Below, in pieces: positions 47,384-48,876 of a DNA stretch of 62,701 bases. Made by a program: the position numbers and the translations under genes. The notes under the pieces were generated by a model, which did not search any database, had not been told where the DNA came from, and was given only the letters and a program-made list of their open reading frames with translations. Origin of the DNA: Minisyncoccota bacterium (GTDB lineage Bacteria; Patescibacteriota; Minisyncoccia; UBA6257; JAGOQP01); NCBI GenBank assembly GCA_041674185.1, contig JBAYWE010000005.1, positions 1 through 62,701 on the forward strand, given 5' to 3'. Position 1 is the first letter of the stretch, and every line of letters starts with the position of its first letter.

Positions 47384-47539
47384 CTAGCTATTCGGAGTAC
47401 ATCCTGTTACTGGAGGACAATTCCCACCACTCGGCTCACAAGGAGCATTGTTGAGGGTCTTGTTACTGGTTTTCTTTCTTTTGGAAGTCTTTCCAGAGGA
47501 AGAAACCAACTGAAGAGAAAAAACATTGTGTTTTTCCAT
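47384..47539 (-). CDS. Candidate RiPP precursor peptide (51 aa)
   Basis: AGGAGA RBS 7 nt before the ATG, 20 nt after the rSAM stop. Sequence: MEKHNVFSLQLVSSSGKTSKRKKTSNKTLNNAPCEPSGGNCPPVTGCTPNS. Lys-rich leader and a Cys/Pro/Gly/Thr-rich tail with three Cys. Confidence 0.6.
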   Translation of the reverse strand: MEKHNVFSLQLVSSSGKTSKRKKTSNKTLNNAPCEPSGGNCPPVTGCTPNS

Positions 47540-47559
47540 GATATTTCTCCTATATAGGT

Positions 47560-48876
47560 TTATGTTGTTCCCCATATACCGGTATATGGGTTATAAAAAC
47601 AATTTTTTGGTTCAACTGAAAGATCGTTGGAATTGTTAAAGAATTTCAAAACAGGATAACAACCAAAACAACAATATCTAAACTCACAATCTTTACATTT
47701 TTCTACCATATCTTTAGAAAAACCCCTTATATCTTTCGTGGATTTCTTCTGTAAAATATCAGAAATCTTTTCTCGTTGTATGTTACCAAAAATTATATCT
47801 TGATCCATAACACACGGACGAACATCTCCAGAATTTGAAATATAAATATTTTTTGAAAAACAAGTGTGTCCATACCTTGCTCTTGCAAAATCTTTTAAAA
47901 AGCAACTGGTAAAAATGGGCTTTTTAATAAGATACTTATTAGCTAACGACGGAGAATTATTCACACACACCACTCCTCTCCCAGCGGGTCTTACAATATC
48001 AATTTTAATCTGATGAACACCAACTTTCTTTAAATACAAAACTAATTTATCTACATCCTCTTCATTATTACCCATACTAATAATTGCCACTCGTACAGGT
48101 ATATTTATTTTTAAGGCAGAGTGTATAGATGTTATAGTTTTATCATAACTACCAGTCGTTCTGGTTACATTTTCATGGATGGCTTTAAAACCGTAAATAG
48201 AGATTGCAATTTTTACATCATTGGATTTAAAGAAGCGAAGAATATTTTCATCAAGGATAGTTCCATTAGTAAAAACTTCAATAAACGTAAATCCTAGTTT
48301 CTTACTATGAAGTATAAGTTCTCTTAGGACGCTTCTTCTCATTAATGGTTCTCCCCCTATAAACTGAATTCTGCGACAACCCATATGATATACATCGGTC
48401 AACAATTTCTTAAAAACTGAGGTGGAAGCACTTGGCTCATCCGTATTAGCCAAGAAACCAAATTCTCCACAGCAATGAAAACAACTTAGATTACACACAC
48501 TAGAGATTTCAACCCATACAAACTCAAGAATGGGAGGTTTTTTTATTTTTAATTTATAGATAGAAACATCCGAAGAAAAGAAATTCCCTAGTTTCTTTTT
48601 TCTTAATAGAGACAAAAAATCTATAAGATCTTTATTCTTTATCTCCTGATCTAAAATAAAATCAAAAACGTTTAATCCTTTTTCACAAGCACTTAATAAA
48701 TTTCTAGAAATATTATTTATAGAAAAAACTTCTCCAGAAATTAAATTATATATTGCTCCATTCTTTGATCCAGAAACCAAGAAACAATCTTCATTTAATT
48801 TAAAGAACAAAGGAAGTTTATGAATAAATCTAGTTTTAATGCCTCTTAGATTCAAAGCTTTTAATGAAAGTTTCAC
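47560..48876 (-). CDS. Radical SAM / SPASM-domain peptide maturase with an RRE-like N-terminal domain
   Basis: 438 aa. GTG start with a GGAGAA RBS. CNLSCFHC (Cx3Cx2C). C-terminal Cx10Gx4C ... CKDCEFRYCCFGC ... C pattern. About 110 aa PqqD-like N-terminus (YNLISGEVFSINNISRNLL). Confidence 0.85.
   Translation of the reverse strand: MKLSLKALNLRGIKTRFIHKLPLFFKLNEDCFLVSGSKNGAIYNLISGEVFSINNISRNLLSACEKGLNVFDFILDQEIKNKDLIDFLSLLRKKKLGNFFSSDVSIYKLKIKKPPILEFVWVEISSVCNLSCFHCCGEFGFLANTDEPSASTSVFKKLLTDVYHMGCRRIQFIGGEPLMRRSVLRELILHSKKLGFTFIEVFTNGTILDENILRFFKSNDVKIAISIYGFKAIHENVTRTTGSYDKTITSIHSALKINIPVRVAIISMGNNEEDVDKLVLYLKKVGVHQIKIDIVRPAGRGVVCVNNSPSLANKYLIKKPIFTSCFLKDFARARYGHTCFSKNIYISNSGDVRPCVMDQDIIFGNIQREKISDILQKKSTKDIRGFSKDMVEKCKDCEFRYCCFGCYPVLKFFNNSNDLSVEPKNCFYNPYTGIWGTT

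Follow-up and report, generated by a model that had tools for sequence, protein, structure and literature searches.

A putative three-gene RiPP cassette with a radical SAM/SPASM maturase and a Cys-x-Pro precursor peptide in a Patescibacteria genome

The window analyzed here is a whole stretch of 62,701 nucleotides from a Minisyncoccota bacterium (contig JBAYWE010000005.1 of assembly GCA_041674185.1, positions 1 to 62,701 of the forward strand). Three of its genes probably form a cassette for a ribosomally made, post-translationally modified peptide (RiPP), in which a radical S-adenosylmethionine (rSAM) enzyme with a SPASM domain would modify the Cys-x-Pro units of a 51-amino-acid (aa) precursor, most likely to thioethers, and a protein with an HExxH motif would remove the leader. 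An earlier reading of the sequence, called here the original prediction, had proposed a two-gene RiPP module consisting of the maturase and the peptide. The RiPP reading is upheld by our analysis, but the locus proved not to be an isolated oddity: it belongs to a large family with members far outside the candidate phyla radiation (CPR). In more than 70 loci, a homologous enzyme is adjoined by a same-strand peptide of Cys-x-Pro repeats.

Gene content of the cassette

The maturase gene lies on the minus strand (47560..48876) and encodes 438 aa plus a stop from a GTG start; it was assigned from Pfam matches, an AlphaFold2 (AF2) model, Foldseek searches and homologues, and it contains the radical SAM motif CNLSCFHC. 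The precursor gene (47384..47539, minus strand; MEKHNVFSLQLVSSSGKTSKRKKTSNKTLNNAPCEPSGGNCPPVTGCTPNS) starts 20 nt past the TAA stop of the maturase gene, and the ribosome-binding site (RBS) GGAGA (47546..47550, minus strand), read directly from the sequence, lies 6 nt before its ATG (47539). Its 51-aa product has cysteines at positions 34, 41 and 47 and ends in APCEPSGGNCPPVTGCTPNS. Residues 1-31 (47447..47539, minus strand) make up the leader region, recognized by aligning its conserved hydrophobic motif VFSLQLVSS with the family, and residues 32-51 (47387..47446, minus strand) make up the core region, which has the Cys-x-Pro units CEP, CPP and CTP and is nearly identical in relatives. Convergent to this pair, and ending 19 nt from the peptide gene, is the plus-strand gene of the 264-aa HExxH protein (46570..47364), a candidate leader peptidase. 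The open reading frames (ORFs), the motifs, the RBS, the spacing and the unique triple Cys-x-Pro run all check out, so the sequence observations behind the original prediction are accurate.

The precursor gene is conserved in its core

A triple Cys-x-Pro run occurs once in the six frames of the 62.7-kb window and in 0 of 50 shuffles, which exceeds chance expectation. Close relatives of the cassette were found via the HExxH protein, which is 79% identical in locus L070 and 70% identical in L067/L068. The precursor orthologue reads MKKQDVFSIKLVSFSGK...NNTPCEPDGGNCPPVTGCTPNS in L070 and MKKQSVFSVKLVSIQTK...FNAPCEPDGGNCPPVTGCTPNS in L067, and the core PCEP(S/D)GGNCPPVTGCTPNS is kept in the two relatives. 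Over the last 22 codons of the precursor, the relatives differ by 9-10 synonymous vs 1-2 non-synonymous changes. The leader, with 9 synonymous vs 12 non-synonymous differences, is far more divergent than the core. The orthologues, the codon constraint and the family alignment (A3) indicate that the 51-aa ORF is a real gene under purifying selection. In A3, C34, C41 and P49 are invariant and P36, P43 and C47 are conserved at 90% or more, and the leader motif VFSLQLVSS aligns with the E-L-x-K-V-T and T-L-V-L-V-S motifs of other members.

A longer, 63-aa reading from an ATG at 47575 was rejected, as that ATG arises from codons for the conserved Ile/Val-Trp of the maturase C terminus. The 51-aa start is favored because the RBS precedes the second ATG and because the architecture of the family and the position of the leader motif fit it. 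Pfam and NCBIfam scans of ten family peptides gave no match except a Nif11 leader in the peptide of locus L143, which is described below.

Cys-x-Pro peptides accompany homologous enzymes in genomes and metagenomes

Genome loci were obtained from look-ups of enzyme homologues and from a scan of GTDB genomes with a profile of the HExxH protein, and a metagenome set of 80 further loci came from a scan with a profile of the enzyme. Among the genome loci with full-length homologues (at least 29% identity), a small ORF was present beside all but one; the exception, L013, has a frame-interrupted copy of the small ORF beside the enzyme. In the metagenome set, 52 of the 80 loci contained a frame of at least three Cys-x-Pro units within 1.5 kb of the enzyme, always on the enzyme strand (39 downstream, 13 upstream). 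Such a frame was present in 40 of the 56 metagenome loci that have 400 bp or more of flank on each side. The density of Cys-x-Pro frames was 0.31/kb near the enzyme, on its strand, vs 0.03/kb farther away, on both strands, which per strand is a ~20-fold enrichment over background. The original prediction had pointed to a conserved small ORF beside homologous enzymes as its own check, and such an ORF recurs across genome and metagenome loci alike.

Examples of the family peptides are MKMELIKVTPDRGVTSKACIPQCGPDCQPACIPA, MELQKVTPQEDRKDSGPCNPEYGNCGPTTGGSCDPCSP from a Portnoybacteria metagenome-assembled genome (MAG), MSSTGATLVLVSPESNASTQCTPHSPCQPHGCSPSGGPPCQPDNASCHPK from a WWE3 MAG, and a 115-aa peptide of Negativicutes with ~17 Cys-x-Pro units; across the family, the number of units ranges from 3 to about 30. 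Proline occupies position +2 for 83 of the 88 cysteines in 20 non-redundant CPR-type peptides and for 328 of the 353 core cysteines in 45 non-redundant metagenome cores. Several types of leader were recognized: one has the motif E-L-x-K-V-T or x-L-V-L-V-S, and VFSLQLVS of the window belongs here by alignment; another has R-P-K-W-E-x-P-E-I-x-x-W; and another has K-P-Q-I-F-C-V-T-P. A further type is seen in L143. There the enzyme, a 30% identical homologue of the window maturase, adjoins a peptide in which a Nif11 leader with a Gly-Gly site (TIGR03798, 38 bits vs a cutoff of 32.3) is fused to a Cys-x-Pro core. The pairing of a certified RiPP leader with a Cys-x-Pro core beside a homologous maturase provides independent evidence for reading the Cys-x-Pro region as the core of a RiPP.

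Two further groups of loci were observed. L029, L032, L033, L037 and L043 carry a second peptide subfamily, ...VISIQRDH..QCCKPGPCSPK(L/W/Q/K), with enzymes only ~26% identical to that of the window and paired with an HExxH protein. The Negativicutes-type loci L010, L082 and L089 have long (CxPx)n cores, for example CWPRQQ repeated seven times, and are bare two-gene pairs beside tig-clpP-clpX, without an HExxH gene.

Domains and predicted structure of the maturase

Pfam searches of the maturase gave Radical_SAM (PF04055; 5.5e-16, 59.6 bits vs a gathering cutoff of 29.5, residues 123-279), SPASM (PF13186; 8.5e-12, 45.6 bits vs a gathering cutoff of 21.5, residues 339-398) and also Fer4_12 (PF13353), above its gathering score. 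A database search returned ~70 full-length unnamed homologues with 28-40% identity, of which 61 (27-39% identity) make up alignment A1; the AF2 model, with a predicted local distance difference test score (pLDDT) of 91.8, was built on the same alignment. The CxxxCxxC cysteines C128, C132 and C135 of the radical SAM core (residues ~119-300; 47977..48522, minus strand) are invariant among the 61 sequences. So are seven cysteines (339, 355, 394, 397, 403, 406 and 426) of the SPASM domain and C-terminal tail (residues 339-438; 47563..47862, minus strand); an eighth conserved cysteine is absent. They are arranged as C339-x10-G-x4-C355, then CKDCEFRYCCFGC (residues 394-406), then C426, following the pattern Cx9-15Gx4C ... 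Cx2Cx5Cx2-3C ... C. With both Pfam models above cutoff and both cysteine patterns in place, the radical SAM and SPASM assignments of the original prediction hold.

The N-terminal domain (residues ~24-100; 48577..48807, minus strand) resembles a RiPP recognition element (RRE) in its AF2 secondary structure, in its profile alignment to CteB and by Foldseek. In the model, strands at 24-27, 31-35, 40-44 and 50-53 are followed by helices at 55-65, 70-77 and 81-93, with pLDDT of 87-98 over most of the length, and on this topology, a sheet followed by three helices, the domain is predicted to be RRE-like. Position 22 of the enzyme family profile aligns to CteB residue 17; the alignment therefore includes the N-terminal domain of CteB, where its RRE lies. 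A weak match (0.0017) of the domain to the N terminus of TIGR04150 was also obtained.

Foldseek searches of the PDB with the maturase model placed CteB, SkfB and SuiB on top (~2e-17, 380-460 aligned columns), followed by the anaerobic sulfatase-maturating enzyme (anSME) and TigE, and the matches to CteB, SkfB, SuiB and TigE cover the full length. The original prediction would have been undermined by a grouping with non-RiPP SPASM enzymes; by fold, the maturase groups with CteB, SkfB and SuiB, which are RiPP maturases with a recognition domain at the N terminus.

The HExxH protein accompanies the peptide

The HExxH family is small: a search of 1.84 billion proteins yielded 549 representatives at E<=0.001, and all of the named members are from Patescibacteria. 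The motif is HEILH in the window (residues 176-180; 47095..47109, plus strand). In an alignment of 60 sequences, W166, H176, E177, H180 and L205 are invariant. Conservation reaches 90% or more at H143, P144 and, on the helix after the HExxH helix, H194, D202, N203, E204 and R206. In the AF2 model (pLDDT 96.6), a helical N-terminal domain (residues 1-127) precedes a sheet of three strands, which is followed by the HExxH helix and then the second conserved helix; the predicted fold resembles that of a minimal zincin. A scan of fused or extended family members for additional domains found only one M23 fusion.

In the genome set, an rSAM homologue lies within 5 kb of the HExxH gene in 28 of 56 loci, in at least three gene orders. 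The possible link of the convergent HExxH protein to the module, raised by the original prediction, gains from this, as the adjacency is conserved in Patescibacteria despite the changing gene order. In L020 and L030, the maturase gene is followed by a divergent HExxH gene and then a convergent peptide gene with the core CIPQCGPDCxPAC(I/S)P. L018 (2475-5950) has this architecture and nearly the same core, but a 728-aa nitroreductase-YcaO fusion replaces the rSAM enzyme. In L034 (3441-9320), the same kind of YcaO fusion is found together with an HExxH protein and a Cys-rich peptide, and an rSAM enzyme is encoded at a distance; the two fusions are 722-728 aa long, and their nitroreductase part is SagB-like. 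The HExxH protein thus tracks the type of peptide and leader and not the chemistry of the maturase. A role as leader peptidase is likely, because the HExxH protein travels with the peptide while the YcaO fusion replaces the rSAM enzyme in one genome.

An insertion sequence-like gene was seen beside the YcaO fusion of L018, and the locus gives the impression that the maturase of a single peptide-peptidase pair has been exchanged. A MazG-like gene adjoins the rSAM gene in L001 (6391-6645) and a stand-alone HExxH gene in L021 (4300-4647), which may be coincidental.

Proposed mechanism

In the mechanism that we propose, the RRE-like domain of the maturase would bind the hydrophobic leader motif VFSLQLVS. 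The radical SAM core, together with two auxiliary SPASM Fe-S clusters, would then modify all three Cys-x-Pro units in the core, and the product would most likely be a thioether, of the sactionine or ranthionine type, from each cysteine. The proline at +2 would act in recognition or in forming a turn, or it may be the acceptor. The convergent HExxH protein would act as a cytoplasmic zinc metallopeptidase that cleaves off the leader.

Thioether formation is favored because the closest relatives, CteB and SkfB, are thioether synthases, because the enzyme has seven auxiliary cysteines and because its catalytic-site positions are nearest to those of SkfB. Six such positions were defined by Precord et al. 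(PMC10288494). They were mapped here via hidden Markov model alignments and column counts, and the signatures of CteB, SkfB and anSME were derived from the alignments. The signature is Y, I, F, S, I/V, M/F in the present enzyme family and Y, T, F, S, Q, L in SkfB, which is identical to the family at three of the six positions (Tyr, Phe and Ser). CteB (F, F, T, S, H, Q) and anSME (F, Q, Q, S, D, F) are each identical to the family at one of the six. CteB has seven auxiliary cysteines like this family, and one of its auxiliary cluster sites is reportedly open for a substrate cysteine. By analogy with these enzymes, one thioether per Cys-x-Pro unit is our best guess. The sactipeptide or ranthipeptide label is likewise something we infer by analogy, and no named maturase model reaches its cutoff.

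Alternative explanations

A number of observations weigh against the proposed cassette. On the side of the enzyme, no NCBIfam model, named maturase models included, reaches its cutoff with the maturase: the sactisynthase StsB (NF045574) scores 75.5 bits vs 625 and TIGR04064 scores 56 bits vs 519, and homologue P0031 scores 82.1, 60.7 and 57.5 bits with StsB, AlbA and SkfB vs cutoffs of 625, 850 and 300. The original prediction had described the N-terminal domain as a PqqD-type RRE, and this is confirmed only in part: the fold and the CteB profile alignment support an RRE, but the PqqD model (PF05402) matches neither the full maturase at E<=0.1 nor residues 1-119 at E<=10, and for this reason we base the assignment on the fold and the CteB alignment. 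The window maturase also deviates from its own family at two positions. Residue 136, directly after CxxxCxxC, is Cys where 58 of the 61 sequences have Tyr, and residue 359, four residues past the Pro-Cys cluster ligand, is Gln where 57 of the 61 have Arg; the L067 relative has at least the Cys136 deviation in common (CFHCCGEF). No exporter or immunity gene adjoins the cassette in the window, as the original prediction had remarked, and the nearest ABC transporter is ~20 kb away; around the non-CPR homologues, a search for exporters, additional maturases and immunity genes found none. On the side of the peptide, the cores conserve no fixed acceptor residue, unlike known sactipeptide and ranthipeptide motifs. 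In the metagenome cores, positions +1 and +3 accept almost any residue, with Gly common at +1, and where another Cys follows at +3 the result is a contiguous (Cys-x-Pro)n array. Such arrays leave scant room for an acceptor, and this would suit an enzyme of the same cassette that performs non-thioether radical chemistry on Cys-x-Pro, be it formylglycine formation as by anSME, epimerization, or a C-C or C-N link with Pro. Nothing in the core is conserved apart from Cys and the Pro at its +2 position, which is the spacing that anSME recognizes in sulfatases, in the motif C/S-x-P/A-x-R, and anSME is among the best matches of the maturase (6e-24 by sequence, 2e-14 by fold). Its substrates are sulfatases, it has no RRE, and its eight auxiliary cysteines ligate its auxiliary clusters fully. 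The CPR-type peptides, however, do not have Arg at +4, an N-terminal recognition domain such as that of the present enzyme is a trait of leader-dependent RiPP maturases that anSME does not typically have, there are seven auxiliary cysteines here, and the residue after the Pro-Cys ligand is Ile or Val in 51 of the 61 sequences vs Asp, the proposed catalytic base, in anSME (YPCDF). The absence of this Asp and of the eighth Cys and the presence of the RRE-like domain weaken the analogy, and we regard non-thioether chemistry as unlikely.

A separate doubt concerns the third gene. The rSAM-peptide pair could be real and the HExxH protein be something other than a leader peptidase, such as a protease serving immunity or scavenging, a chaperone-like binder, or a CPR housekeeping protein that only happens to lie nearby often; we consider this rather unlikely, though less so than non-thioether chemistry. 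Half of the HExxH loci in the genome set (28 of 56) are without an rSAM gene within 5 kb, several of them with full flanks and without a recognizable peptide (L021, L046 and L055). Most non-CPR loci are also without an HExxH gene, which was seen in only 11 of the 80 rSAM-centered metagenome loci, those with CPR-type leaders. With about half of the family genes standing alone, the peptidase role is proposed only as an inferred one. No conserved cleavage motif precedes the first Cys of the precursors. Sequence searches of Pfam, NCBIfam and the PDB gave no match to the HExxH protein (in the PDB only noise, E>=0.59), and Foldseek against the PDB returned nothing significant (best E-value 1.0), so that a significant match to a known peptidase fold or family is lacking. 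Even so, ~15 of the 27 weak Foldseek matches, among them almost every one at the top, are zinc metallopeptidases (adamalysins, selecase-type minigluzincins and PepN), and the invariant HExxH with a conserved downstream helix is what a working zincin site would have. The adjacency to the rSAM gene persists through three gene orders, and the HExxH gene follows the CPR-type leader and occurs with Cys-rich peptides and a YcaO fusion in L018 and L034. Far less probable than either of these alternatives is that the locus makes no RiPP at all, the enzyme being a cofactor- or haem-type SPASM enzyme (AhbD/NirJ-like) or viperin-like and the small ORF fortuitous. AhbD (TIGR04545, 95.7 bits) and NirJ2 (TIGR04055, 94.3 bits) are indeed the top NCBIfam similarities, and PADLOC reports similarity of the radical SAM core to prokaryotic viperins; but the cutoff of both NCBIfam models is 500, the small ORF is under purifying selection and recurs beside homologues across phyla, the peptide of one homologue (L143) has a certified Nif11 leader, and the enzyme has a recognition-type N-terminal domain. 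The comparative evidence is already at odds with this reading. A defense system of the prokaryotic viperin (pVip) type was rejected, as the PADLOC matches span residues 122-284 only, which is the generic radical SAM core.

The three-gene cassette with thioether formation remains our preferred reading. The modification may be confined to the triad, as a bond from S to the alpha-carbon of residue +1 or a bond to Pro, or it may be of a non-thioether kind. A broader proposal, which we put forward tentatively and as less probable than the cassette itself, is that the Cys-x-Pro peptides are a new RiPP class. From Patescibacteria to Negativicutes-like bacteria, a clade of rSAM/SPASM enzymes would place one small modification on every triad (a thioether ring to +1 or to Pro, or another Cys- or Pro-centered radical product), and in CPR the pair would be joined by a new zincin leader peptidase shared by rSAM and YcaO pathways. 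If this is true, the class would be the sulfur counterpart of the three-residue cyclophane logic of the triceptides.

Expression signals and genomic setting

The maturase gene is preceded by a promoter-like site, TTGAGA-16-TAAAAT (48894..48921, minus strand), which agrees with the consensus at 10 of 12 positions, more than any other site in the region; promoter-like sites are no more numerous in the region than in shuffles, and the site is a consensus match only. The RBS AGGAGA (48883..48888, minus strand), read directly from the sequence, lies 6 nt before the GTG start. At the other end, 26 nt past the precursor stop, where it overlaps the 3' end of the convergent gene, is a terminator-like hairpin (47327..47358, minus strand) with a 9-bp stem, 6 G-C pairs and T8, which has the form of a terminator on the minus strand only. 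From the promoter-like site, the two RBSs and the hairpin, the maturase and precursor genes appear to form one minus-strand transcription unit.

RpoB of the window is 67-80% identical to proteins of Paceibacterota, Parcubacteria, Wolfebacteria and Patescibacteria, and the chromosomal genes include rpoBC, parAB, ssb, rpsF, comEC, a type IV pilus ATPase gene and a split transketolase. On the strength of the RpoB identity and this gene content, the CPR-like host proposed originally is right. The cassette lies directly downstream of parB, in a stretch whose G+C content is slightly lower (0.34-0.355 vs ~0.38 for the window). In related genomes, parB is followed by other genes: PemK and an NTPase in L071 (RpoB 90% identical to the window), RelA in L072 (84%), and a 57-aa Cys-containing ORF with a 361-aa rSAM/SPASM enzyme without an RRE in L073 (GCA_021814445.1; 97%). 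The content after parB varies among relatives, and therefore this is a variable spot and the cassette is accessory and patchy; peptide-maturation cassettes seem to be exchanged in this region downstream of parB. In L073 (22578-23174), at the place of ~48900-47560 in the window, the 57-aa ORF (MAVQKHKVTAG...ISDCSELNCSTYCSDHQDAGN) is followed by the 361-aa enzyme.

Other features of the neighborhood were observed. A 297-aa protein (45396-46289, minus strand) carries a C-terminal sorting domain of type IX secretion (PF18962, 1.7e-07; TIGR04183, 3.1e-09), which is unexpected in a Patescibacteria genome. Adjoining it is a 1310-aa PKD-domain surface protein (41335-45267, minus strand), and both belong to the variable neighborhood of the cassette. 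In the 450-aa ParB of the window (49066-50418, minus strand), the ParB domains begin only at residue 187; the N-terminal extension, rich in Gln, Pro and Ser, has no family match.

Novelty and significance

The kind of system, an RRE-rSAM-SPASM maturase with a Cys-rich precursor, is well known. What is new relative to curated libraries and the searchable literature is the Cys-x-Pro precursor family with its dedicated enzyme clade, and the HExxH family. No family in NCBIfam, Pfam or the PDB claims the maturase, the peptide or the HExxH protein, and a full-text literature search found no description of the Cys-x-Pro peptide/enzyme family or of the HExxH family. The rule of the family, that Pro at +2 is required for every core Cys while there are few other constraints, is a testable substrate rule. 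It is unlike known sactipeptide and ranthipeptide motifs, and therefore a new radical chemistry may underlie it; we see a real chance of new chemistry in this system. The 51-aa peptide and its single enzyme are a small, tractable pair for heterologous expression.

Genome surveys have reported that biosynthetic clusters are few or absent among Patescibacteria (PMC11613949, PMC8692599). Patescibacteria nevertheless repeatedly hold this minimal cassette at a variable chromosomal spot, and a RiPP cassette in CPR bears on the interaction of episymbionts with their hosts or competitors. The HExxH protein is a compact (~260 aa) candidate for a new protease family, with a confident predicted fold and no relatives in the PDB or Pfam, and it appears to be common to radical SAM and YcaO pathways.

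Comparison with known systems

The ranthipeptide maturases of the CteB/SCIFF type (PDB 5WGG and 5WHY; TIGR03974) have, like the window enzyme, an RRE or RRE-like N-terminal domain, a radical SAM core and a seven-Cys SPASM domain, and their substrate is a short Cys-rich peptide encoded adjacently. CteB is the best Foldseek match of the window enzyme (1.7e-17, 439 aligned columns). The window enzyme differs in scoring only 56.5 bits with TIGR03974 vs a cutoff of 425 and in the catalytic site, where one of the six positions is in common. The SCIFF peptides have six Cys in ~45 residues, whereas the peptides here have Cys-x-Pro repeats with other leader types.

Among SkfB and the other sactipeptide synthases (PDB 6EFN; TIGR04403, NF045574 StsB, NF012164 AlbA), SkfB is the best sequence match in the PDB (7.9e-35) and is alike at half of the catalytic-site positions and in leader-dependent Cys modification in a small peptide; all sactipeptide synthase models are far under their cutoffs. 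SkfB makes a single link from Cys to the alpha-carbon of Met and has a twitch-like domain, in contrast with the repeats and the full seven-Cys SPASM domain found here.

anSME (PDB 4K36-4K39) is also a SPASM enzyme that acts on a substrate Cys with Pro at +2. It differs from the window enzyme in the RRE-like domain, the seven Cys, the Ile/Val in place of Asp and the leader-bearing peptide found here, and the CPR-type peptides do not have its Arg at +4.

The Nif11-leader RiPP precursors (TIGR03798), which have radical SAM maturases (TIGR04064), resemble the peptide of L143, whereas the leader of the window peptide is short and unrelated. The grasp-with-spasm model (TIGR04193) is the best model for the SPASM region and tail, scoring 68.8 bits with the C-terminal third only of the window enzyme and 92 bits with a Negativicutes homologue; both fall short of the 175-bit cutoff, and the window, like most loci, has no ATP-grasp gene. 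In L009 (2687-5715), the rSAM-peptide-HExxH trio is flanked by an ATP-grasp gene of the MvdD type together with a 38-aa ORF and a methyltransferase gene, and this ATP-grasp gene echoes the similarity of the maturase C terminus to the grasp-with-spasm model.

The metalloproteases known to remove RiPP leaders come from families M1, M16, M61, M103/TldDE, M50 and M79 (PMC10885120). The 264-aa HExxH protein has in common with them an HExxH-type zinc signature and a location in a RiPP cluster. No Pfam model of families M1, M16, M61, M103, M50 or M79 matches it, and its predicted fold differs from theirs, consisting of a 127-residue helical N-terminal domain and a small zincin-like module.

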